A stretch of 21,501 nt of DNA from Acidihalobacter ferrooxydans (GTDB lineage: Bacteria; Pseudomonadota; Gammaproteobacteria; DSM-5130; Acidihalobacteraceae). Within the stretch, counting starts at the first letter, position 1. The number at the start of each line of letters is the position of its first letter. A program made the translations under genes and the position numbers. The stretch spans positions 2,712,418-2,733,918 of the forward strand of contig NZ_CP019434.1 of the NCBI RefSeq assembly GCF_001975725.1. Direction: 5' to 3'. This document shows, piece after piece, positions 1 through 10,455 of the stretch. The notes beneath the pieces are model-generated. The model was not told where the DNA came from, did no database searches, and saw nothing but the letters and a program-made list of their open reading frames with translations.

Positions 1-1282
1 TCCTCTACGGTAATGCGTGTGGCGTGCGCCACATGCTCATCGTGCCACCATGCCGTTCCCGGCCCCGAGGCGGGGCATCTCCTGGCGCACGATGTCCCAG
101 ATGAAGCCGGCCAGCTCACGGGCGATCGCCACGCACACCCGTTTGACGTTCTTGCCCGCCTGGGTCAGGGTGCGGTAGCGGCCACAGAGTCTTTTCTGTG
201 CCCGCCAGGCGATCGCCTTGGCCTGTTCCGGGGCCGCTTTGGCCTTGCGTTTGAGGTGCATCGTCTGACGCGCCGGGAACCGATAGCTCCAGGCACACTC
301 CACCAGCATGCGGCGCGCATGGGCATTGCCGGTCAGGGTGATCGCGCCCTGGCGTCGTCGGCCGCCGCTGCTGTGTTCACTCGGCACCCGCCCCAGGTAG
401 GCCATGAGCTGTTTGGGTGACTCGAAGCGGCTGATATCGCCAAGCTCCGCCAACAGCACGATGGCGGCCAGTGTGTCGATGCCGCGCAAGGCCACCAGCG
501 CATCCACCACCGGGGCCAATGACCAGTTCGGCAGGGCCTGCATCAATTGGGCGGTAAGATCGGCCACGCGTCGAGAGGCGGCCTTGACCGCGTCGATGTA
601 CTCCTGCAGCACCACCTGCAGCCAGGGTTGTTCGAAGCGGATCGATGCCATCCAGTTGAAGTGGGTCGCCGTCCAGCGTGTCTTGCCCGTGGGCCAGTGA
701 TGCCCGTGGCGCAACAAAAATCCGTTGAGCTGCTGGCGTGCCTTGCGCTCCTGACCCTTCATGTCGTCCCGCGCCCGCGTCAGATCCCGCATCGCTTCCT
801 GCTCGGCGTCCGGCACCCACACCGGCGTCAGTTCGCCAGCCCGTAACAGCCGCGCCAGCTTCAGCGCATCACGCCGGTCGGTCTTGACCCGCTCGCCCGC
901 CTTCTTCGGAATCAGCGAAGGCGCCACCACCTGACAGTCATGCCCCGCCGCGACCAGCCGCCGATACAATCCGTAACCACACGGGCCGGCCTCATAGCAA
1001 AACTGCAACAAGGCGCCCTCGAACTCGGCGCTCAGGCGATCCAGCCATCGGCTCACCTTCTTCGGCTCATGGGCGATCTCTCCCCGGTACAGGGGTTCAT
1101 CGCGCCCTGGCAGGGCGACCGCCACCGCAATCGTGTCCTTGTGAACGTCCAGTCCGACGTAGGCGGCATATCGCTCCGTCACGATCGGTGCCGAAGTCTG
1201 GTTTGCGCTATCCTCTTTCATGACCTGTCCTCCTCAATGTGGCTCTGTGGCGGGAGTGATTTCCCAACCCACCCCAACATAA
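1..1282 (-). mobile_element. IS110-family insertion sequence, partial (left end off-window; right boundary approximate)
   Basis: Contains the DEDD-type transposase ORF 37..1221. Only 36 bp follow its stop before the window edge. Between the start codon (1221) and the truncated integrase reading frame (open from 1283) there are about 60 bp, with a GAGGAGG Shine-Dalgarno at roughly 1229-1236. IS110-family elements lack classical terminal IRs, so the exact end cannot be read off the sequence. Confidence 0.65.
37..1221 (-). CDS. IS110-family (DEDD) transposase, 394 aa
   Basis: N-terminal YVGLDVHKDT, CYEAGPCGYGL and VKTDRRDA motifs typical of the DEDD_Tnp_IS110 domain. C-terminal LGRVPSEHSSGGRRRQGAITLTGNAHARRMLVECAW matches the Transposase_20 domain. 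Strong SD upstream. Confidence 0.93.
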   Translation of the reverse strand: MKEDSANQTSAPIVTERYAAYVGLDVHKDTIAVAVALPGRDEPLYRGEIAHEPKKVSRWLDRLSAEFEGALLQFCYEAGPCGYGLYRRLVAAGHDCQVVAPSLIPKKAGERVKTDRRDALKLARLLRAGELTPVWVPDAEQEAMRDLTRARDDMKGQERKARQQLNGFLLRHGHHWPTGKTRWTATHFNWMASIRFEQPWLQVVLQEYIDAVKAASRRVADLTAQLMQALPNWSLAPVVDALVALRGIDTLAAIVLLAELGDISRFESPKQLMAYLGRVPSEHSSGGRRRQGAITLTGNAHARRMLVECAWSYRFPARQTMHLKRKAKAAPEQAKAIAWRAQKRLCGRYRTLTQAGKNVKRVCVAIARELAGFIWDIVRQEMPRLGAGNGMVAR

Positions 1283-1540
1283 CCCACGTGCGTTGAGGTT
1301 GGGCAGGTCAAAACATCATGTCTAGCGAAACTCCATACAAGCGCTTGGAAAAGGGCGTGGGAAAAAGCGGGATTACCGTCTACAGACAGAGGAACTCGAA
1401 AAGGCGTACACAACCGGCGTCATACTTGCGGTCGCACACTGAGAGCGGCCGGGGTATCGCAGGAAACTCGAGAAGCGCTAATCGGCCACGCCAATGGGGA
1501 CATCACGACGCACTACTCGGCGGCAGAACTGTGGGAACTA
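1283..1540 (+). pseudogene. Tyrosine recombinase (phage/island integrase) remnant, part 1 (catalytic-domain fragment, N-terminus missing)
   Basis: Frame with codon starts congruent to 2 mod 3 reads ...AKLHTSAWKRAWEKAGLPSTDRGTRKGVHNRRHTCGRTLRAAGVSQETREALIGHANGDITTHYSAAELWEL. This includes an HxxR box, an LxGH box and the catalytic Tyr context (THY). No start codon. An in-frame TAA at 1280-1282 and the IS110 element lie immediately upstream. The frame is interrupted at the TA (1539-1540) by the IS630 insertion. Confidence 0.75.
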
Positions 1541-2623
1541 GTGTAGTGCGTCATTCTGTTTGGAACTTAAGCGCCGATTGGCGCGGACTACCTTCTGGAG
1601 GATGTCATTGGCACTGGCCGTCCAGATGAATGATTTCGGTTGCCGATTATGCTCAGCGATAGAGTCCTCAATCGCGTGGATCAGTTCCGGTACGCTGGTG
1701 AACACGCCACGGCGCAGTTGCTGGGTGGTGATGTCACGAAAGAAGCGCTCCACCCTGTTGAGCCAGGACGCGGAGGTGGGCGTGAAGTGGATGTGAAAGC
1801 GTGGGTGCTTGGCCAGCCACTGTTTCACTTTCGGATGCTTGTGCGTAGCGTAGTTGTCGCAGATCAGATGCAGCGCCTTGTCCCGGGGCGTCTCGCGCTC
1901 GATCTGGCGCAGGAACTTCAGCCATTCGACATGCTGATGACGCGCCTGACATTGACCGATCACGGTACCATCGAGCACGTTGAGCGCCGCGAACAAGGTG
2001 GTGGTGCCATGACGCTTGTAGTCATGGGTCATCGTCGCGGCACGGCCTTTCTTCAAAGGCAGGCCCGGTTGGGTACGGTCCAAGGCCTGGACCTGACTTT
2101 TCTCGTCACAGCAGAGCACCAGCGCGTGCGCGGGCGGATTCAGATACAGCCCGACCACGTCTTCAAGCTTTTCGATAAACCGCGGGTCGCGCGAGACCTT
2201 GAACGTCTCGATGCGGTGCGGCTTGAGGCCATGCGCTTGCCACACCCGACGAATGCTCGCCTCGCTGACACCGGTGCGCACCGCCATGGACCGCGTGCTC
2301 CAATGGGTGGCGTTAGCAGGCCGGGTCTGCGTGGTCAGGCGCACGATCTCGGCCTCGTCCACCGTCTTGGGACGCCCGCCCCGCGGGCGATCCCGATGAA
2401 TGGCCGCCAGTGCTCCTTGCGCATAACGCCTGCGCCAGCGACCCACTTGCACGCGTCCGATATTCAACGCCTGAGCAATCTCATGGTTGTTCATCCCGCG
2501 CGCGGCAAGCAACACAATCGCCGCACGACGCGCTTCGCGCACACTGGCCGTATTGGAATTCTTCAACTGTCTCAGCCGCTTCTCTTCGTCGGCGTCCAAC
2601 TCAATCACCGGGGCTACTCTCAT
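1538..2623 (-). CDS. IS630-family DDE transposase, 361 aa
   Basis: N-terminal HTH (AAIVLLAARGMNNHEIAQALNIGRVQVGRWRRRY). DDE_3 region with LICDNYATHK and FTPTSASWLNRVERFF. The stop codon TAG (complement of 1538-1540) lies outside the IR, using the duplicated TA plus one flanking base. Confidence 0.93.
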   Translation of the reverse strand: MRVAPVIELDADEEKRLRQLKNSNTASVREARRAAIVLLAARGMNNHEIAQALNIGRVQVGRWRRRYAQGALAAIHRDRPRGGRPKTVDEAEIVRLTTQTRPANATHWSTRSMAVRTGVSEASIRRVWQAHGLKPHRIETFKVSRDPRFIEKLEDVVGLYLNPPAHALVLCCDEKSQVQALDRTQPGLPLKKGRAATMTHDYKRHGTTTLFAALNVLDGTVIGQCQARHQHVEWLKFLRQIERETPRDKALHLICDNYATHKHPKVKQWLAKHPRFHIHFTPTSASWLNRVERFFRDITTQQLRRGVFTSVPELIHAIEDSIAEHNRQPKSFIWTASANDILQKVVRANRRLSSKQNDALH

Positions 2624-2673: not shown

Positions 2674-4006
2674 CACTAGTGTCCGGAAAAATCTGGCATG
2701 ACCCTCTATAATCAACTGTTTTTACGAAAATAACATGCCTTTTTCGCCTGTCACCGACTTGAACTGGCCTCCGGGCCAGGCGCACGCTTCAACGCGGTAT
2801 TCCGGGTTGGAGCGACCAAGTCATGTACACAGGAAAACTCGTGTTCGCACAGGCGATAGATCACCTGCCTTTGCACACACTGCGGCGCTGCATTCAGCTC
2901 TACAACGGCAACCGGCACGTCAAACGCTTCAGCTGTCAGGATCAGTACCGATGCATGGCCTTTGCACAGCTCACCTACCGGGAGAGCCTGCGCGACATCG
3001 AGGCCTGCCTCAACGCCCAGAGCAACAAGCTCTACCACATGGGCATCCGTTCTCGCATCGCGCGCAGCACACTGGCCGAGGCCAACGAGAAGCGCGACTG
3101 GCGCATCTACGCCGACTTTGCTCAGTCACTGATCCAGATCGCCCGGCGACTGTATGCCGACGAGGACCTTGGCCTCGAACTCGACAACACGGTCTACGCG
3201 CTCGATGCCTCCACCATCGATCTCTGCTTGTCCGTATTCCCCTGGGCGCATTTCCGGCAAACCAAGGCCGCCGTCAAGCTACACACGTTGCTCGATCTAC
3301 GCGGCAATATCCCTTCGTTCATCCATATCTCCGACGGCAAGCTTCACGATGTGAATGTGCTCGACCTTCTACTGCCAGAGCCCGGCGCCTTCTACATCGT
3401 GGATCGTGGCTATACGGACTTCGAGCGTCTGCATCAGCTTCACCAGGCGTTGGCATTTTTCGTCATTCGCGCCAAGTCCAACCTGCAGTTCCGGCGGGTG
3501 TACTCCCGCCCCGTGGACAAACAGACCGGTCTGCGTTGCGATCAAACCATCGCGCTCACTGGTGTCCGCAGCGCCCGGCACTACCCGGACCCACTTCGTC
3601 GCATCAAGTACTACGACGCAGAGACCGACAAACGGCTGGTCTTTCTGACCAACAACTTCACGATCCCGGCGATCACCGTAACGGATCTCTACCGGTACCG
3701 CTGGCAGGTGGAGCTGTTCTTCAAATGGATCAAGCAGCACCTGCGCATCAAGTCGTTCTTCGGCACGTCAGAAAATGCGGTCAAGACGCAAGTCTGGATC
3801 GCCGTCTCCGTCTATGTCCTGGTCGCCATCATCAAGAAGCGACTCGATATCCCGGCCAGTCTCTACTCGATCCTACAGATTTTGAGCCTGACCATTTTCG
3901 AAACAATGCCCCTGAATCAATTGCTTACAGAGGATGACCCCGATATGACTCATTCCGACCCCCATAACCAGTTGAATTTATTTGAATAATATTCCGGACA
4001 CGAGTG
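2674..4006 (+). mobile_element. IS4-family insertion sequence (1333 bp) nested inside the IS630 element
   Basis: Imperfect terminal IRs: CACTAGTGTCCGGAA (2674-2688) versus the reverse complement of TTCCGGACACGAGTG (3992-4006), 14/15 matches. Flanked by a perfect 9-bp direct repeat AGGCAGGAT at 2665-2673 and 4007-4015 (target-site duplication). Confidence 0.87.
2823..3989 (+). CDS. IS4-family DDE transposase, 388 aa
   Basis: Carries the Y(2)R(3)E(6)K signature directly in YRYRWQVELFFKWIK. Has a DDE_Tnp_1-like core (IVDRGY...) and an N-terminal region (MYTGKLVFAQAIDHLPLHTLRRCI...) resembling the DUF4372 domain seen in this transposase group. Confidence 0.92.
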   Translation: MYTGKLVFAQAIDHLPLHTLRRCIQLYNGNRHVKRFSCQDQYRCMAFAQLTYRESLRDIEACLNAQSNKLYHMGIRSRIARSTLAEANEKRDWRIYADFAQSLIQIARRLYADEDLGLELDNTVYALDASTIDLCLSVFPWAHFRQTKAAVKLHTLLDLRGNIPSFIHISDGKLHDVNVLDLLLPEPGAFYIVDRGYTDFERLHQLHQALAFFVIRAKSNLQFRRVYSRPVDKQTGLRCDQTIALTGVRSARHYPDPLRRIKYYDAETDKRLVFLTNNFTIPAITVTDLYRYRWQVELFFKWIKQHLRIKSFFGTSENAVKTQVWIAVSVYVLVAIIKKRLDIPASLYSILQILSLTIFETMPLNQLLTEDDPDMTHSDPHNQLNLFE

Positions 4007-4048: not shown

Positions 4049-4183
4049 GCGCAAGCAGCCGAAGTGATCACCGGCCGTAGCATCAAGCAGACACCAGCGC
4101 TGCATGTGATCGCCCGCACAGCCGCTGTCGGCGTGTCGGAAAACAAAAAGGGGCTAACGGCAAAAAGCTCGCTAACCCCTTGA
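4049..4183 (+). pseudogene. Tyrosine recombinase remnant, part 2 (C-terminal 44 codons plus stop)
   Basis: Continues the frame of 1283..1540 exactly once the IS630 element and one TA copy are removed (...AAELWEL|AQAAEVITGRSIKQTPALHVIARTAAVGVSENKKGLTAKSSLTP*). The TGA stop at 4181-4183 lies 6 bp from the tRNA-Arg 3' fragment. Confidence 0.7.
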
Positions 4184-4189
4184 TTTTAA

Positions 4190-4234
4190 TGGCGCGCCCG
4201 GAAGGATTCGAACCTCCGACCACCTGGTTCGTAG
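4190..4234 (-). repeat. att site (distal copy): 45-bp fragment identical to the 3' portion of tRNA-Arg
   Basis: TGGCGCGCCCGGAAGGATTCGAACCTCCGACCACCTGGTTCGTAG is identical at 4190-4234 and 10379-10423. It covers the tRNA from the anticodon loop to CCA. Sequence diverges immediately after position 4234 versus 10423. Imperfect similarity continues about 14 bp on the other side (4176-4189 versus 10365-10378). Confidence 0.92.
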
Positions 4235-4352
4235 TTAGGTGAATCTAGGTTTCATGCGGGTTCAGCCCGAATCACGTAAAACGCTAACCGACTGATTTCC
4301 TTGCATTCGCGTATTCAACCCGTGTCAGCTAGAATTAGCCAAGCGCCGCAAA

Positions 4353-4384
4353 ATTGGCAACAAATTGGCAACAGATTGGCAACA
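4353..4384 (+). promoter_or_regulatory. Three 11-bp-phased copies of ATTGGCAACA upstream of int (candidate integrase arm-type sites)
   Basis: ATTGGCAACA at 4353-4362, 4364-4373 and 4375-4384. Two more copies in the same orientation sit at the other island end (10300-10309, 10311-10320). They lie between the att core and the int start codon. Confidence 0.5.
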
Positions 4385-4414
4385 GCCGCCGACCACCTGA
4401 CCCGGAACGCAAAC

Positions 4415-5692
4415 ATGGCAACTGAGAAGCGCCTTTCCCCACTGGCAATCAAGAACGCGAAAGCCACCACCCGCGACCGTTGGCTAAACGATGGTGGAGG
4501 TTTGTTTCTGCATGTCCGGCCATCCGGTAGCAAGGCGTGGCGGCTGCGATACACCATCAACGGCAAGCGGCGAGTCAAGAACCTGGGCGATGCCGGCGTA
4601 GTGAGTGCCCGCGAAGCACGCGACGCCGCGCATAAGGCACGCAAGCTGGTTGAGCAAGGGCTAGATCCGATTGAAGAGGAGGCCGCCGCACGCGAGGCCG
4701 AACGCAAAGAACTGGAACAGCGGCGCACCTTCGAGGATGCCTTGAACCGATGGGCCGAACTTGAGCTATCGAGCCGCAAGGACGGGGGCGCGGAAAGCAT
4801 ACGTGCCCTGCGTAAGGACGTGCTGCCGGTCTTGGGTGGCCGTCTGCTGGACGAAATCACACGCGGCGATGTGCTGGACGCGCTGGACGGGATCAAAGCC
4901 AGAGGCGCCGCCATTATGGCGAACCGCACCTTTGGCGACCTGCGGCAATTTTTTAACTGGTGCGCGTCACGCGAATGGGTGAGCGACAGTCCCTTGCGAG
5001 GCGTCAGAAAGGAAAACATCGGCGGACGGGAAAAAGAACGCGACCGGATACTGTCGGCGGGCGAATTGATAGAGCTACGCGACAAGCTACCGGGCGCGAA
5101 CCTTGAACCGCAAACCGTGGCGGCGGTCTGGATAATGCTTGCGACACTTTGCCGGGTGGGCGAGTTAATTCAAGCCAGATGGGAAGATATCGACCTTGAA
5201 AGCGGCACGTGGAGGATACCGGCGACCAACGCCAAGAACGCACGCGAGCATGTCGTTTTTCTGTCCGACCTTGCGATGCGGCAATTCGCCATTTTGCGCG
5301 AACGTACCGGGTGTGGCGAATGGGTAATGTTGTCGCCTTCAAAGGACGGTCACATAGGCATGAAAACCATCACGAAGCAGATACGCGACCGCATGCGCGA
5401 GGAACCCTTGAGCAACCGCACCAAGGCCGCAGGCGCATTAATCCTGACCGGCGGAGCATGGACACCGCACGACTTACGCCGAACAGGTGCAACGCTGATG
5501 GGTGAATTAGGCGTTTTGGGGGAAGTAATCGAGCGATGCTTAAACCACGTTGAGCCGAGCAAGATACGCCGCACGTATCAGCGGCACGAATACCGGGCAG
5601 AGAAGCGCGAAGCCTGGATGCGGTTGGGTGATTATTTGGATGACCTGCTGACTGGCCGTTCGCGTAAGGTTGTGAATATCCAGCGAGCATAA
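4415..5692 (+). CDS. int: Tyrosine-type site-specific integrase (P4-like, DUF4102 arm-binding N-terminus), 425 aa
   Basis: From the ATG at 4415: MATEKRLSPLAIKNAKATTRDRWLNDGGGLFLHVRPSGSKAWRLRYTINGKR (typical DUF4102 N-terminus). Catalytic boxes CRVGELIQARWEDIDL (R), TPHDLRRTGAT (HxxR) and LNHV...RRTYQRHEY (H...Y). The TTG at 4301 used by the ORF track adds 38 non-homologous residues that overlap the repeat array. Confidence 0.93.
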   Translation: MATEKRLSPLAIKNAKATTRDRWLNDGGGLFLHVRPSGSKAWRLRYTINGKRRVKNLGDAGVVSAREARDAAHKARKLVEQGLDPIEEEAAAREAERKELEQRRTFEDALNRWAELELSSRKDGGAESIRALRKDVLPVLGGRLLDEITRGDVLDALDGIKARGAAIMANRTFGDLRQFFNWCASREWVSDSPLRGVRKENIGGREKERDRILSAGELIELRDKLPGANLEPQTVAAVWIMLATLCRVGELIQARWEDIDLESGTWRIPATNAKNAREHVVFLSDLAMRQFAILRERTGCGEWVMLSPSKDGHIGMKTITKQIRDRMREEPLSNRTKAAGALILTGGAWTPHDLRRTGATLMGELGVLGEVIERCLNHVEPSKIRRTYQRHEYRAEKREAWMRLGDYLDDLLTGRSRKVVNIQRA

Positions 5693-5762
5693 TGAACGAA
5701 ACCCGGCGAGTGCGACCAACACGCGCCAGGCTTCTGACCAAACGTGATGGAGGGATCACGCG

Positions 5763-6449
5763 ATGGCTAGCGAAGATTGTACACAAATTGAATTCACGCA
5801 GGAGGGGGACTATTGGCTCGCGTTCGACGACGTGGGCAATTGTGGCGAAGGCAAGACCAAGGCCGAGGCACGCAGGGATTTACGCGGACAACAAGCCCGC
5901 AACGCCGCCGAGGTCGAGACGTTCATTGCAAGGCGCGAGCATGAAGCCGAGCAATCGAAGGCCAAGGCCGAGGCCGAACGAAAGCGGCAATTCGATGCCA
6001 ACCTGGGCCGTTACCTTCGCGCGATAGGCAAGCTTGAGCGCAGGATAAATCGCCGTGTGCAAAACGGCACCGCGCAACGTGAAAGCGACCGCCGAAAAAT
6101 AATTGCTGACGAGCTGGAAGGCTTCGCGTACGACTACCCACCCATCGAGACCACACCGCAAGCGCCCGGCTGGTTGGAGCAATCAACGGTGAAAATAGTC
6201 CCACCAACATCTACGCAGGTGGCGGACTGGCGAAAGAGTGTCAAGAAAGCGGCTAATGCACACCGGCAAGCTGCCAAAAACCGGGAAAAGCAACCTGCCG
6301 CCACCCGGGCCGCGATCAAAGCCAAGCACTTGGCGACCGAGCGCAAGAAAAAGGCAGTCAGGGCGCTGGCGGCGCAAGGGAAAACAAATCGACAAATTGC
6401 TTCCGTCCTGGGACTGAGACCCCGGCAGGTGCAACGGTTAAAAAAATAA
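5763..6449 (+). CDS. Hypothetical regulator: HicB/UPF0150-like N-terminal domain, charged coiled-coil linker, C-terminal HTH, 228 aa
   Basis: GGAGG SD 8 nt upstream. N-terminus IEFTQEGDYWLAFDDVGNCGEGKTKAEARRDL resembles the HicB-fold pattern (xDGxYxAxxPxLPGCxxxGxTxEEA). The middle is K/A/E/R-rich. The C-terminus AVRALAAQGKTNRQIASVLGLRPRQVQRLKK is a resolvase/HTH_23-like helix-turn-helix. Confidence 0.7.
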   Translation: MASEDCTQIEFTQEGDYWLAFDDVGNCGEGKTKAEARRDLRGQQARNAAEVETFIARREHEAEQSKAKAEAERKRQFDANLGRYLRAIGKLERRINRRVQNGTAQRESDRRKIIADELEGFAYDYPPIETTPQAPGWLEQSTVKIVPPTSTQVADWRKSVKKAANAHRQAAKNREKQPAATRAAIKAKHLATERKKKAVRALAAQGKTNRQIASVLGLRPRQVQRLKK

Positions 6450-6543
6450 TTCAGGGGGGTGACATTTCCCCGCTCTGCATAAAAAAGCCCGCGAATCGCC
6501 GTGTGCAATGCTTGACCCGTGTTCAATCAACAGGGGTCAAACA

Positions 6544-6747
6544 ATGCAAACTACGTTCGATCAGAACCGAATTATCCGCAACAAACAAGCCGCTGCCTTC
6601 CTGGGCGTTTCGGTTGCGACATATTGGCGACTTGTTCGTGCGGGCACGTTGCCGCAGCCGGTCAAAATCACGGCTCAAATAGGCGGCCAGCCGCTGCACG
6701 TGCTTGAGGAATTTCTCGAGCGCCTGAGCGCCGGGGGTGAGGTATGA
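6544..6747 (+). CDS. alpA: AlpA-family (HTH_17, excisionase-like) transcriptional regulator, 67 aa
   Basis: MQTTFDQNRIIRNKQAAAFLGVSVATYWRLVRAGTLPQPVKI... matches the AlpA/Xis-type winged-helix pattern (xxEVAxxLGVSxxTxYRLxxxGxFPxPxKxG). Position after int is typical. Its stop overlaps the next start (ATGA). ATG at 6544 is preferred over the ORF-track start at 6508. Confidence 0.85.
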   Translation: MQTTFDQNRIIRNKQAAAFLGVSVATYWRLVRAGTLPQPVKITAQIGGQPLHVLEEFLERLSAGGEV

Positions 6748-7181
6748 CCGCCCCGATTGACCGCGTGCTGCCATTGCTCGACGGCGTTCGTCAGACCGGC
6801 CCAAACCGATGGATTGCACGCTGCCCGGCCCATGCCGACAAAAGCCCGAGTCTGAGCATCCGCGAGGCCGAGGATGGGCGCCTTCTTGTGTACTGTTTTG
6901 GTGGTTGCGAGGCCGAAGATGTGACCGCCGCGCTTGGCTTGCGAATGGCCGACCTGTTCCCCGAACGCCCGCAGTACCGGCCCGGAGACAGGGCACAGGA
7001 GCCGCGCATTTCGCTGACCGACCTCGTTGATCTGCTGGCGCATGAGGCATTAATAGCCTACGTCGCAGCAGCTGACGCGGCGCACGGAAAGCCCATATCC
7101 AACGAGGACGCCGACCGCGCAGCCCTGGCCGCGCAACGCATCCGGACGGCTGTTGATTATGCGCGAGGGTACCCACGATGA
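6744..7181 (+). CDS. Stand-alone CHC2-type (DnaG-like) zinc-finger protein, 145 aa
   Basis: ARCPAHADKSPSLSIREAEDGRLLVYCFGGCEAEDVTAALGL matches the zf-CHC2 pattern CPFHxEKTPSFxV...CFGCG. No TOPRIM or primase catalytic region follows. ATGA overlaps at both ends indicate translational coupling. Confidence 0.8.
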   Translation: MTAPIDRVLPLLDGVRQTGPNRWIARCPAHADKSPSLSIREAEDGRLLVYCFGGCEAEDVTAALGLRMADLFPERPQYRPGDRAQEPRISLTDLVDLLAHEALIAYVAAADAAHGKPISNEDADRAALAAQRIRTAVDYARGYPR

Positions 7182-8899
7182 GCATACTTGGCCAACTTGA
7201 ACGCGCTGCGCAGGCACGCGCCAAAGCCTCAAGCGTTATCGACGCATTGGCCGACCGCGACGACCCGGAAACCGATGCAGCCGAAACGATGGACGCGTTC
7301 CAGGATTACGAGCGACTAGCGCAGGACGAACGGACGACCGAACCGCCCAAGCCCGAACAGGAACAGGGTGGCGCCGCAATCGAACGCCGAGCGCAGACCG
7401 TCGAACGGACCGGAAAGCCAAGCACGCCACCCGCGCCGCTGCCAACCGGGCTGCCACCTGTCGAGAAGTTCGATCTAGCGCTGTTGCCGGAAAGTCTAAG
7501 GGAAGCATGCGGTGACGCGGCCCATCGCATGCAATGCCCGCCCGATTTCGTCGCAGTTGGGTACATGGTGGCGGCGAGTTCCGCGGTTGGGCGCATCGTG
7601 GGCATCAAGCCAAAACGCCGTGACGACTGGCTTGTGGCGCCGAACCTTTGGGGCTGCGTCGTCGGCAGACCGTCCGCCCTGAAAACCCCCGCGCTTTCCG
7701 AAGCGCTGAGGCCGCTAAAGGCGCTTGAGGCCAAAGCGCGGGAGCAGTTCGCGAAGGAACGTCGGCAATTCGAGACCGCGCTTCAGTTGCACGAATTGAA
7801 AATGTCGAGTGATCGAAAAAAAGCAGCCGCCGCCATTGCCAAGGGTAACACCGCTGAGGCCGAAAACATTTTATTAGGGTCGGGAACAGAGCCTGAAGCG
7901 CCCACATGTCGGCGATTCATCGTCAACGACACCACGGTCGAAAAGTTGGGCGAATTGCTGGCCGAAAATCCGCGCGGGCTGCTGATGTTTAGAGACGAGC
8001 TAGCCGGGTGGTTTTCTTCACTCGACCGCGAATATGCGACGACTGACCGGGCTTTCTATCTTGAAGCGTTTAATGGAAGCGGCAGCTTCGTCTATGACAG
8101 AATCGGGCGCGGGACGGTTCACATTGAAGCGGCAACGGTGTCCTTACTGGGTGGAACGCAACCGGGACGACTGTCCGCGTATCTGCGCGGCGCGATTAAG
8201 GGCGGCGCAGGCGATGACGGGCTTGCGCAACGGCTTCAACTGTTGGTGTGGCCCGATCCGGTGAAATGGGAACACATCGATGAGTGGCCGAACGCTGACG
8301 CCAAGCGCGAGGTGGTTCGCGTGTTCGAGCACTTGGTTGATCTAAACCCGGAAGAGGCGGGGGCAACGAAAGTAGAGTACGACGCCATCCCTACACTGCG
8401 GTTCGACGACGGCGGCCAGGAGGCCTTTGACGGCTGGTACAACGCTCACATGAAGCGCCTGCGCGATGAGGACTTGCCGCCCTACCTTGAGAGTCACTTA
8501 GCAAAATACGCGAGCTTGATGCCTAGCTTGGCGCTGATCGACCACCTTTCATCGTTCCGAACTGGCCCCGTTACGGAGGAATCAGCGATTCGAGCCGCCG
8601 CGTGGTGTGAATACTTGGAGAGCCATGCCGTCCGGGCCTATTCGCCGATGGTGACGGGGGCCGTCACCGCTGCTGAGCGGCTGTTGAAAAAAATCAAAGC
8701 GGGCGAACTCGGCTCTGCATTTACGGCGCGGGATGTGTACCGGAAGTGCTGGTCAATGCTGACCGACATCGAAGATGTGCGCGAGGCCATCGATCTACTG
8801 GTGGATTATGGGTGGCTTGTCGCGCAATCCATCCCAACACGTGGGCGGTCGGCGACCATCTTCGAGGTGAGCCCTGCCGCATCCAAGGGGGGTGAATGA
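7178..8899 (+). CDS. DUF3987 (YfjI-like) P-loop protein, putative island replication helicase/initiator, 573 aa
   Basis: Central region LALLPESLREACGDAAHRMQCPPDFVAVGYMVAASSAVG..., WGCVVGRPSALKTPAL (Walker-A-like), RGLLMFRDELAGWF (Walker-B-like hhhhDE) and LGGTQPGRL is characteristic of DUF3987 proteins that follow primase domains in P4-like and CP4-57-like islands. Confidence 0.87.
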   Translation: MSILGQLERAAQARAKASSVIDALADRDDPETDAAETMDAFQDYERLAQDERTTEPPKPEQEQGGAAIERRAQTVERTGKPSTPPAPLPTGLPPVEKFDLALLPESLREACGDAAHRMQCPPDFVAVGYMVAASSAVGRIVGIKPKRRDDWLVAPNLWGCVVGRPSALKTPALSEALRPLKALEAKAREQFAKERRQFETALQLHELKMSSDRKKAAAAIAKGNTAEAENILLGSGTEPEAPTCRRFIVNDTTVEKLGELLAENPRGLLMFRDELAGWFSSLDREYATTDRAFYLEAFNGSGSFVYDRIGRGTVHIEAATVSLLGGTQPGRLSAYLRGAIKGGAGDDGLAQRLQLLVWPDPVKWEHIDEWPNADAKREVVRVFEHLVDLNPEEAGATKVEYDAIPTLRFDDGGQEAFDGWYNAHMKRLRDEDLPPYLESHLAKYASLMPSLALIDHLSSFRTGPVTEESAIRAAAWCEYLESHAVRAYSPMVTGAVTAAERLLKKIKAGELGSAFTARDVYRKCWSMLTDIEDVREAIDLLVDYGWLVAQSIPTRGRSATIFEVSPAASKGGE

Positions 8900-9405
8900 T
8901 GGGTCGGTACTTGGAAAAAATTCGCGAAAACGCCCAAAACCGCACTGACAAAACTGACAAAAGCCCCCTTGCCGCAACTTCTGTCAGTTCTGTCAGCGCC
9001 CAATCCGGCCATTTTCAGAAAAAAAACGAGGCCCCTCCGATTCATGGGATGACGGCGCACGAGGAAGCGAGCATCAGGGCCTGGTTGGCGTACATCGAGG
9101 AAACCGACCCTGCAATCGTCGCCGAGGTTCTGACCCGATGCCGCCGGATGCCTGACGCACGGGCCTACTTCCTGCGGCGGGCAAAAGAGGTTCCACAAAC
9201 AGAACCCGACCACGCGGTGACCTGCGGGGCCTGCCGACACTTCCAGCGGACCGAGCACCCGCACCTGGGGCATTGCGTCAGAGGCGAGCCGGAAGCAGCC
9301 GCTGGGCTTTGGGATAGTGACCGGCGCATGTGCCGTGTGTTCGAGCCTGTGGACCGCGACGAGAACCGACATTCTGGCAGGCAGGACCACCCCAAGCCCG
9401 CGTAA
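8896..9405 (+). CDS. Hypothetical protein, 169 aa, Cys-rich C-terminal half. Its 5' part encodes palindrome A
   Basis: The ATGA overlap with the upstream gene and the preceding GGGGGG run support the start at 8896/8899. The C-terminal VTCGACRHFQRTEHPHLGHCVRGEPEAAAGLWDSDRRMCRVFEP has a CxxC...C...C arrangement. An alternative internal start (MTAHEE..., about 9049) would place the palindrome in an intergenic gap. Confidence 0.62.
   Translation: MMGRYLEKIRENAQNRTDKTDKSPLAATSVSSVSAQSGHFQKKNEAPPIHGMTAHEEASIRAWLAYIEETDPAIVAEVLTRCRRMPDARAYFLRRAKEVPQTEPDHAVTCGACRHFQRTEHPHLGHCVRGEPEAAAGLWDSDRRMCRVFEPVDRDENRHSGRQDHPKPA
8944..8996. repeat. Palindrome A: ACTGACAAAACTGACAAAAG - 13-nt gap - its imperfect inverted copy CTTCTGTCAGTTCTGTCAG (four CTGACA units)
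   Basis: Left arm 8944-8963, right arm 8977-8996 (17/20 complementary). Homologous to palindrome B over about 90 bp. Translated in frame as TDKTDKS...TSVSSVS. Confidence 0.85.
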
Positions 9406-9469
9406 CGACGCAGAGCGGATGACGCATTACGCCAAACCGGCACGAACTTACCATTACGGAGACTTACCA

Positions 9470-9883
9470 ATGGCAAAAAAAATCGTTACCCTTCAAACAC
9501 ATATGCGCCGCAAGGAGGCCGTCAAGCTGCGGCTGGCGGGCCTGAGCTACCGGCAGATTGGTGATCGGCTCGGCATTAGTCACGTTGCCGCGCTGAACCA
9601 TGTTCGCGCCGTGCTGGATGAACTTCGGTCTGAGACCGCCGAGACCGCCGAGCAGATTCGCCGAATCGAGTTAGAGCGCTTGGACTGCGCGACCGCGTTA
9701 GCCATGCGCATGATCGACCGGGGCGAGCTGGCCGGTATTGATCGGCTCATCAAGATTCAGGAACGGCGTGCCCGGTTGCTTGGATTGGATGCTGCCGAGC
9801 GGGTGGACGTTTCGACGCAGGAGATTCCGACCGTCATCATTGCCGAGCCGGTGAGTCCGCGACTGCCTGATACGAAGCACTGA
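9470..9883 (+). CDS. Small HTH DNA-binding protein, small-terminase-like, 137 aa
   Basis: GGAG SD 9 nt upstream of the ATG at 9470. RRKEAVKLRLAGLSYRQIGDRLGISHVAALNHVRAVLDE is a sigma70-region-4/LuxR-type HTH. The following helical segment IELERLD...IDRLIKIQERRARLLGLDA recalls phage HTH proteins often annotated as small terminase subunits. The TerS assignment is from memory and untested. Confidence 0.72.
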   Translation: MAKKIVTLQTHMRRKEAVKLRLAGLSYRQIGDRLGISHVAALNHVRAVLDELRSETAETAEQIRRIELERLDCATALAMRMIDRGELAGIDRLIKIQERRARLLGLDAAERVDVSTQEIPTVIIAEPVSPRLPDTKH

Positions 9884-9948
9884 TTGCTTGAATCTGCACC
9901 GGTGCCGAGTAGCGGATAATCACCGAGGAGAATTTTCCGGGAATGGCC

Positions 9949-10020
9949 GGAATGGGAACTGACAGAACTGACAAAAGTTCGATCCGGGTAACTTCTGTCA
10001 GTTCTGTCAGTTCCCATTCC
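9949..10020. repeat. Palindrome B: 30-bp inverted repeat (29/30) with a 12-bp spacer, built on four CTGACA units
   Basis: GGAATGGGAACTGACAGAACTGACAAAAGT (9949-9978), spacer TCGATCCGGGTA, then ACTTCTGTCAGTTCTGTCAGTTCCCATTCC (9991-10020). Intergenic, 66 bp after the stop of 9470..9883. Confidence 0.9.
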
Positions 10021-10299
10021 AAGCATTTCCGTAAAACACGCCCCGGTAGCCATCCGGCACCATTCGCCGCCTAGACGCATTTTGCGTACACCGTACAAGG
10101 CGAATGCCCGCCAGCCGTACCCTAGCCTACCTTTCGCGTGATAGGCCCACAGACACCCCGCTACGGCGGTCTGGCGGCCTGTTTGTCGGCAACCGACAAG
10201 GATTGCTTGATAGCCATTCAGCGCCGCGCCTGACCGGGTGGGCGGACAGCGACCAAGGGCTTGCACGGGCTTAAACGAAACAGCCCTTGGTGGCGTTCA

Positions 10300-10320
10300 A
10301 TTGGCAACAAATTGGCAACA
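10300..10320 (+). promoter_or_regulatory. Two 11-bp-phased copies of ATTGGCAACA near the tRNA-proximal att site (candidate arm-type sites)
   Basis: ATTGGCAACA at 10300-10309 and 10311-10320, 58 bp from the att core at 10379. Same motif and orientation as the triplet at 4353-4384. Confidence 0.5.
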
Positions 10321-10378
10321 AATCCGCGTTTTCGTCTAGTGGGCGATGCCTCGCAATGCTCTAAGTCCTTGTTTTAAT

Positions 10379-10455
10379 TGGCGCGCCCGGAAGGATTCGA
10401 ACCTCCGACCACCTGGTTCGTAGCCAGGTACTCTATCCAACTGAGCTACGGGCGC
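10379..10455 (-). tRNA. tRNA-Arg (anticodon ACG), 77 nt, intact, CCA encoded
   Basis: Reverse complement GCGCCCGTAGCTCAGTTGGATAGAGTACCTGGCTACGAACCAGGTGGTCGGAGGTTCGAATCCTTCCGGGCGCGCCA folds as a cloverleaf. Anticodon stem CCTGG/CCAGG, loop CTACGAA. Confidence 0.95.

Follow-up and report, generated by a model that had tools for sequence, protein, structure and literature searches.

A seven-gene island in tRNA-Arg of Acidihalobacter ferrooxydans as a candidate minimal phage satellite of PICI type

The phage satellites that most resemble the locus described here are of two kinds. The phage-inducible chromosomal islands (PICIs) have been defined in SatelliteFinder by a core of five components, namely integrase, regulator, primase-replicase, capsid morphogenesis and small terminase subunit (TerS), with the Type B members, which have four of these five components, making up about 74% of the PICIs detected (PMC10085698). 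The PICMIs of Vibrionaceae (phage-inducible chromosomal minimalist islands) integrate at the 3' end of fis, which is their hallmark, and share a core of co-located int, alpA and DUF3987/DUF5906 'prim' genes; they need iolg/icg for excision, have neither terS nor another packaging-redirection gene such as sid or ppi, and occur in complete form only in Vibrionaceae (PMC10803314). Here we present the analysis of a window of 21,501 nucleotides from Acidihalobacter ferrooxydans (the whole stretch of DNA that was analysed, positions 2,712,418 to 2,733,918 of contig NZ_CP019434.1; coordinates below are those of the window), in which an island of 6.1 kb occupies the 3' end of a gene for tRNA-Arg(ACG). 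Weighing all the evidence, we consider with moderate confidence that this island is an integrated, helper-dependent phage satellite of PICI type, having about the size of a PICMI.

The limits of the island are set by a perfect 45-bp direct repeat. Its right copy, the attR core (10379-10423), constitutes the 3' 45 nt of an intact tRNA-Arg(ACG) gene on the minus strand (10379-10455; ARAGORN, Rfam tRNA with 68 bits), and its left copy, the attL core (4190-4234), is a displaced duplicate of the same 45 nt, next to which a decayed similarity extends for another 18 bp to the left (4172-4189 vs. 10361-10378). As stated in the original prediction, which had been made from the sequence alone, the 6144 bp between the repeats (4235-10378) carry seven genes on one strand, the plus strand, and all seven open reading frames (ORFs) are intact, each showing the GC1-high/GC2-low/GC3-high pattern of coding DNA. 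They encode, in this order, an integrase, a protein with a helix-turn-helix (HTH) domain (orf2), an AlpA-like protein, a CHC2 zinc-ribbon protein, a DUF3987 helicase, a Cys-rich protein (orf6) and a TerS-family protein. The chaining of the genes from alpA to orf6, also predicted, is apparent in ATGA start/stop overlaps at 6744, 7178 and 8896, but only in part independent of gene models: in the NCBI annotation both DUF3987 and orf6 begin later, which leaves 482 aa and 164 aa, respectively, so that two of the three couplings hinge on the choice of start. The ATGA start after the helicase stop is kept in relatives.

The integrase (4415-5692, plus strand, 425 aa) is a tyrosine recombinase, and its proposed P4 type is confirmed by matches to Arm-DNA-bind_3 (E 1e-21), Phage_int_M (2e-10) and Phage_integrase (6e-17) of Pfam; it also belongs to phrog_1 (6e-65), and its translation contains the HxxR and Y motifs. 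Three tandem repeats of ATTGGCAACA with a period of 11 bp lie at 4353-4384 (plus strand), with 118 bp between them and the attL core and 30 bp between them and the int ATG downstream, where they overlap the int promoter region, and two more tandem copies lie at 10300-10320 (plus strand), 58 bp from the attR core. These are the only five exact copies of ATTGGCAACA in the window, about 0.04 being expected per 10-mer, and are all placed at the two island ends; they form candidate arm-type integrase sites, the right pair belonging to the other arm of attP. Since the repeats would flank the core on both sides in the excised circle, as arm-type sites do in a functional attP, the att sites are supported as having the anatomy of a functional attP. 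Judged from these junctions, the element was evidently inserted into the 3' end of tRNA-Arg(ACG) by its P4-type integrase.

How does this island compare with the satellites already described? Four of the five PICI core components are represented, namely the integrase, the regulator, the primase-replicase module and TerS, with no head or morphogenesis family matched in the island for the fifth, the capsid-morphogenesis component. Tail, holin, portal and connector genes are also missing, as demanded by the definition of PICIs; more generally, domain and profile scans of the island proteins found no capsid, tail, lysis, conjugation or defence families, in keeping with what had been predicted, and PADLOC gave no match of note. 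The island further resembles PICIs in the gene order (int, an accessory gene, an alpA-type regulator, a primase/replicase gene with the origin 3' of rep, then terS), in having a tyrosine integrase with direct repeats and in possessing TerS as presumed packaging-redirection device. It differs from them in its size, 6.1 kb and seven genes against a PICI median of 9.5 kb and 15 proteins, in its helicase of superfamily 6 (SF6), the DUF3987 protein, which has just a CHC2 zinc-ribbon protein as partner, and in its host, an acidophilic and halophilic member of Chromatiales. By its sequence, the island can be filed as a small Type-B-like PICI, Type B being the proteobacterial type to which it comes closest.

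The likeness to PICMIs lies in the size of about 6 kb, the core of int, alpA and DUF3987 'prim', the ATGA-coupled genes, the lack of capsid remodelling, the presence of an extra gene between int and alpA and of a small gene between alpA and prim, and the position of the integrase at the end distal to the target gene. In contrast with PICMIs, the island is integrated in tRNA-Arg(ACG), not in fis, and encodes proteins of the TerS and orf6 families; hence it fails to qualify as a PICMI on two of the features tested, integration at fis and absence of terS. It is also absent from the supplementary tables of PICMIs (PMC10803314). The original prediction had referred to satellites of about 6 kb in marine vibrios carrying terS and a gene for a DNA-bending protein; this was mistaken, for PICMIs encode neither, and Fis is the product of their chromosomal target gene (PMC10803314). 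With P4 the island has in common a P4-type integrase at the 3' end of a tRNA gene, an AlpA-type regulator and a dedicated replicative helicase with repeated short sites, including a second repeat cluster at a distance. However, the helicase is of the SF6 DUF3987 type instead of the SF3 alpha protein, and packaging specificity would be exerted through TerS, whereas P4 relies upon P2 cos and the redirection of capsid size. Of the genes of P4, only int and alpA have equivalents in the island; psu, delta, sid and epsilon are absent, as is the gene for the SF3 alpha protein, and the island cannot be considered P4-like.

The last gene (9470-9883, plus strand) encodes a protein of 137 aa with an N-terminal HTH, a long helical hairpin and a flexible tail, which falls in phrog_645 (E 5e-24). 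This family is labelled 'RNase E', as are the proteins in some RefSeq records of actinophages (NC_047972, NC_047974, NC_047977, NC_048152), while the GenBank versions of the same phages have TerS or HTH protein; the label looks like a propagated misannotation. A tblastn search against phage genomes retrieved 33 actinophages with homologues showing 30-44% identity to the island protein, and these phages have the homologue as gene 1 or immediately upstream of the gene for the large terminase (TerL), often with the annotation 'terminase small subunit'. For example, gene 1 of Bolt007 overlaps TerL and is then followed by the portal gene, gene 4 of Leaf overlaps the terminase and gene 1 of Blett is located 1 kb upstream of TerL. 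Metagenomic homologues with 40-48% identity likewise overlap or abut TerL (Terminase_6N/6C), portal genes coming next. The family is encoded in at least 532 stretches of IMG/VR; considering the best 80 of these loci, a TerL homologue is present no more than 2.5 kb downstream on the same strand in 68, and most of the other 12 look like single TerS-TerL reading frames. The AlphaFold model of the monomer (pLDDT, the predicted confidence score, of 90.5) consists of the HTH, a helix of 46 residues, a second helix and a flexible, disordered tail, and has 15 matches in BFVD at E<=1e-3, including viral proteins annotated as TerS. Functional phage TerS proteins join an N-terminal HTH to a helical core for oligomerisation and a TerL-binding tail, and the monomer model has parts that may correspond to these.

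Homology, synteny with TerL and a model with HTH and long helix thus uphold the proposal that the last gene is TerS-like; the TerL-adjacent homologues and the two predicted helices after the HTH argue against an ordinary transcription factor devoid of an oligomerisation domain. On these sequence relationships, we regard the gene as encoding a true member of a phage TerS family. Longer gene starts at 9317 and 9419 were rejected on the basis of off-frame composition, the ribosome-binding site at 9470 and the NCBI model. Given that this TerS family has no Pfam or NCBIfam model and bears the RNase E label, satellite finders are likely to miss elements endowed with it, and automated finders may score the island with three of the five PICI components.

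The second line of evidence concerns replication. The DUF3987 gene (7178-8899, plus strand; DUF3987 E 5e-88) encodes a replicative helicase of 573 aa, with both Walker A (GRPSALKT) and Walker B (LLMFRDE) intact. The family belongs to the MCM-like helicases of SF6, which carry a winged helix at the C-terminus (PMC4889955); for one member, ATP-dependent 5'->3' helicase activity and binding to its primase have been shown (PMC11724360). The replication module envisaged in the original prediction is therefore sustained by a helicase accompanied by a conserved repeat module, but not its guess of an SF3 or SF4 enzyme. Directly 3' of the helicase stop, within the 5' end of orf6, there is an inverted repeat (IR-A, 8944-8997) composed of two ACTGACARA repeats, 20 nt and two inverted copies (ACTGACAAAACTGACAAAA, 20 nt, TTCTGTCAGTTCTGTCAG), which is a candidate replication origin. 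A second and more perfect ACTGACA module, IR-B, lies 1 kb downstream of IR-A in the intergenic region 3' of the TerS gene (9913-10056, core 9958-10011); it is a near-perfect palindrome of 144 nt with a folding dG of -44.5 kcal/mol (z = -9.6).

The ACTGACA module is not peculiar to the island. We scanned the 220 bp after the DUF3987 stop for exact ACTGACA/TGTCAGT heptamers in 87 related loci (given below by L numbers) and 1605 control windows: at least two heptamers were found in 20/87 related loci and at least three in 15/87, against 0/1605 control windows. The loci with the module are distributed over Alpha-, Beta- and Gammaproteobacteria, Desulfovibrio (Desulfobacterota) and Firmicutes as well as viral contigs, their helicases being just 41-55% identical, and the module follows the DUF3987 stop after 5-84 bp in relatives, being contained in the first ~150 bp in L009, L010, L012, L016, L018, L030, L032, L045, L094, L098, L180 and L181. 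Its conserved consensus reads ACTGACARAACTGACARAA, a short GC-rich spacer, TTYTGTCAGTTYTGTCAGT and an A-tract. In the loci of Firmicutes and Desulfovibrio the module is intergenic, and in proteobacterial loci it occupies the 5' end of the ATGA-coupled downstream ORF, the translation of which through the module yields a recurrent 'TDKTDK...VSxVS' peptide; this alternation between intergenic and coding positions points to an element acting at the DNA level. Conversely, the module is missing from one locus (L081, see below) in which the TerS family of the island goes together with another Rep protein and separate iterons; the presence of the module in DUF3987 loci combined with this absence leads us to assign IR-A as the probable cognate origin of the helicase.

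We conclude from this distribution that the ACTGACA module is probably a replication origin; IR-B would be a candidate for a second origin site or for the pac region, possibly functioning also as operon terminator. Several relatives also have a second ACTGACA cluster. The two-site arrangement of IR-A and IR-B recalls ori and crr of P4. We found no description of the module in the literature searched, and it offers a directly testable origin or recognition site for a widespread and poorly characterised family of replicative helicases. Of all our results, this origin module conserved behind DUF3987 lends itself best to reuse, and it may outweigh the island itself in usefulness.

The gene following the helicase, orf6 (8896-9405, plus strand, 169 aa), encodes a protein with a disordered N-terminus, a three-helix bundle and a Cys4 domain (C110, C113, C127, C146), the model of which has pLDDT of 78 overall and above 90 in the core. 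It belongs to a family with 943 cluster representatives at E<=1e-3, and homologues are situated 3' of DUF3987 in L032, L055 and L056. Weak Pfam HPIP_like matches in 16/48 family members, the Cys spacing and the non-significant HiPIP matches of a Foldseek search, which gave no significant match to any fold, provide a hint that the Cys4 region is a metal or Fe-S site. The disordered N-terminus is not conserved and overlaps IR-A; moreover, the first 51 codons (8896-9048) have a weak coding signal, with GC3 of 0.53 vs. 0.75 in the remainder (9049-9405), and would amount to little more than a translation of the origin module. Since some homologues begin at the equivalent of Met52, orf6 may in truth start further downstream.

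Three smaller genes lie between integrase and helicase. The product of orf2 (5763-6449, plus strand, 228 aa), the coding nature of which is indicated by its GC pattern, had been labelled HicB-like; this label is rejected, for there is no HicB signal in Pfam, NCBIfam or PDB and no homologue, only weak matches to a C-terminal HTH. As the gene has the position of iolg/icg in PICMIs, between int and alpA, by analogy its product may be an excision cofactor or regulator. An ORF at 5692-6027 that overlaps the int stop, a possible analogue of iolg, was discarded for its off-frame GC pattern. The AlpA-like HTH_17 protein (6508-6747, plus strand, 79 aa) is a candidate regulator of excision and induction, its label being supported by phrog_66, 'excisionase and transcriptional regulator' (E 2e-7), and an HTH_17 gene is present in the same position in the relatives L180, L181 and L056. 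The CHC2 protein (6744-7181, plus strand, 145 aa) has a DnaG-type zinc-binding domain (Zn_ribbon_DnaG, E 5e-5) without Toprim, and its label is in line with a match to phrog_6088, the N-terminus of primases (E 2e-14). In relatives, DUF3987 is often joined in one protein with a primase of Toprim, PrimPol or RepB type, or has such a primase encoded before it, and the CHC2 domain itself is fused to DUF3987 in L021, L022 and L072. That the CHC2 protein might be a truncated Toprim primase is unsupported: it does not align with the primases of L180 and L181, and a short form is kept in L056 with 42% identity, for which reason it is no obvious truncation.

Among the relatives, two loci combine features of the island in different ways. 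L032 combines DUF3987 and ACTGACA modules with an orf6-like gene, to which a TerS gene of another family (phrog_51) is coupled by ATGA. In L055, int, DUF3987 and orf6 are followed by genes for a DUF3102 protein, a major head protein and, as TerS, Terminase_4, a layout similar to that of capsid-forming PICIs (cfPICIs). Helicase, orf6 and TerS thus come in the same order as in the island, with TerS of unrelated families. The genes 3' of DUF3987 are heterogeneous across 72 loci, comprising two Sf6_terminase, one Terminase_4 and three DUF5681 genes besides toxin-antitoxin systems and other cargo, and the helicase clade seems, from these sequences, to serve several kinds of islands, just some of them with TerS. 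The DUF5681 protein recurs in 3 of the 149 downstream ORFs scanned, one of them in L181 (3742-4149), and may be a further module for packaging or DNA binding, placed where TerS would stand. As a separate observation, many DUF3987 relatives in metagenome-assembled genomes (MAGs) lie on contigs of 2-6 kb (L003, L004, L006-L008, L011, L013, L017, L020, L032, L038 and others); such short contigs would be expected if the islands were multi-copy, excised or repeated, thereby breaking assemblies.

The TerS family leads to another locus, L081 (Logan SRR24974075, 1-4390), which is a metagenomic integrative element of only 4.4 kb. Int comes first and TerS last; between them stand, in this order, genes for a 212-aa protein, an AlpA-like protein, an 85-aa protein, a 226-aa Rep-like protein with iterons inside its gene (2995-3137) and a 71-aa Cys-rich protein; both contig ends have a 14-nt repeat resembling a tRNA T-arm, in addition to GTGGGACACT arm repeats. 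L081 thus shares several traits with the island: int stands at one end and a TerS gene at the other, its product 63% identical to that of the island and a small Cys-rich gene preceding it; an AlpA-like gene is present; arm-type repeats are found at either end, and the terminal repeat resembles a tRNA. It is unlike the island in having another type of integrase, an unrelated Rep protein and no ACTGACA module, and its Cys-rich protein is not homologous to orf6. L081 is a candidate for an even smaller TerS-bearing satellite.

How could the island work? In the mechanism that we propose, a helper phage of pac type with a Terminase_6-class TerL would trigger AlpA, and Int, possibly together with orf2, would excise a circle of 6.19 kb. 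The helicase would then load at the ACTGACA origin, or origins, via its C-terminal winged helix, and the circle would be replicated into concatemers with priming by the host primase or in a rolling-circle mode. The island TerS would subsequently bind an island pac site in or near terS/IR-B and recruit the TerL of the helper, so that helper capsids could be filled by the headful with ~6-7 tandem copies of the island, which after transfer would re-integrate at tRNA-Arg.

A number of points weigh against this interpretation. Helper dependence, excision and transfer would be properties presumed from the sequence, and the island is without close relatives: the best TerS match in a collection of 5.8e9 proteins is 63% identical, the best DUF3987 match is 55% identical, orf2 has no homologue but itself among the same 5.8e9 proteins, and a search of genome contigs gave relatives of at most 50% identity, none with the same cassette. 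The AlpA-like and CHC2 proteins remain under the Pfam cut-offs (HTH_17, 25.4 vs. 27 bits; Phage_AlpA, 18 vs. 21 bits; zinc ribbon, 23.5 vs. 24.9 bits), no catalytic primase domain was detected in the island proteins, and Pfam and NCBIfam matched just an HTH in the 9470-9883 protein, none of their TerS families. To these points have to be added the solved structures, among which the TerS model matches only HTH domains (LuxR/GerE/sigma-r4), the scarcity of recognisable TerS in DUF3987-clade loci, most of which lack it, and the three different genes for insertion sequence (IS) transposases directly left of attL, as would fit a decaying region.

Some of these points may suggest that the island was once a mobile satellite and is now fixed and inactive. 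Cryptic remnants of CP4-57 type in E. coli retain int, alpA and yfjI, and the trio of int, alpA and DUF3987 also forms the core of cryptic elements annotated as 'YfjI family'; with the IS transposases at attL, the missing primase catalytic domain and the lack of relatives that could show polymorphism, a similar fate is conceivable for the island. Several features speak against this: the seven ORFs are intact and have coding composition, the 45-bp repeats are perfect and the arm repeats exact at both ends, the Walker and recombinase motifs are preserved and IR-B has stayed a near-perfect palindrome. We regard a cryptic island as unlikely.

The match of TerS to LuxR/GerE/sigma-r4 domains alone among solved structures would instead accord with a self-replicating integrative element, plasmid or episome, which moves without phage particles and uses the TerS-like HTH protein as regulator or as origin-binding partition factor. 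The two ACTGACA modules flanking orf6 and orf7 (the TerS gene) could then be operators, and the majority of DUF3987-clade islands, devoid of recognisable TerS, do carry cargo such as toxin-antitoxin systems. Yet such a role is opposed by the TerS family itself, whose genes in phages overwhelmingly stand right before TerL (68/80 loci, as noted above), the ACTGACA module tracks the helicase and not the TerS family, relatives hold unrelated TerS families in the same slot, and no relaxase, oriT-associated or partition genes were found in Pfam and PHROGs scans; a replicon of this sort is, in our view, quite improbable. As to the remnant of a temperate phage from which terL and all the rest up to the right end were deleted, many temperate phages do run from int through regulators and replication genes to terS in their left-to-middle part and the TerS family is a phage family, but we strongly disfavour this explanation because neither a TerL remnant nor another structural fragment was found 3' of terS and the right-arm sites are intact, lying 58 bp from an intact core as is unlikely after random deletion, while L081 independently ends with the same TerS family at 4.4 kb and the helicase clade is typical of small islands.

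The preferred reading, an integrated satellite of PICI type, is supported in outline, with the parts of it that lend themselves to tests in silico in its favour, and the island may be regarded as an addition, unusual in its small size, to a kind of satellite already known. A broader and more tentative interpretation, which we deem possible but still doubtful, joins the island with its relatives: it would represent, in its smallest form, a lineage of satellites that extends across phyla and has gone unrecognised, founded on the DUF3987 SF6 helicase and an ACTGACA inverted-repeat origin under strict conservation. Behind the helicase gene, one slot would then take interchangeable, unrelated TerS genes matching different helpers, the Cys4 protein of orf6 (HiPIP-like, possibly Fe-S) would be a new cofactor of replication or packaging, and the duplicated module around orf6 and terS would represent either a two-site origin of the ori/crr kind or the recombination scar of a TerS-cassette exchange.

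The island would, if active, occupy a place between PICMIs, which have no TerS, and classical PICIs, which are larger and carry out capsid remodelling: with seven genes and ~6.1 kb it would be hardly larger than the least that a satellite needs in order to redirect packaging by a TerS of its own. To our knowledge, no phage-satellite system is known in the extremophilic iron/sulfur oxidisers of saline bioleaching, to which an active island would extend the distribution of satellites; our search of the literature on mobile elements of Acidihalobacter found no description of the island.

Minor observations concern the ends of the island and their surroundings. In the right arm (495 bp), the Rfam matches were confined to hairpins of microRNA models and stayed below threshold. 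The right flank belongs to the core genome, with truB, rbfA, infB, nusA and nuoM, and the tRNA-Arg(ACG) gene is adjoined by tRNA-Ser(GGA) (ARAGORN). On the left side, the three transposase genes near attL are of IS110 type with DEDD motif (37-1221, minus strand), of IS630 type with DDE_3 domain (1538-2623, minus strand) and of IS4 type with DDE_Tnp_1 and DUF4372 domains (2823-3989, plus strand). The chromosomal side of the old tRNA 3' flank may thus be either a hotspot of insertion or the debris of earlier elements.

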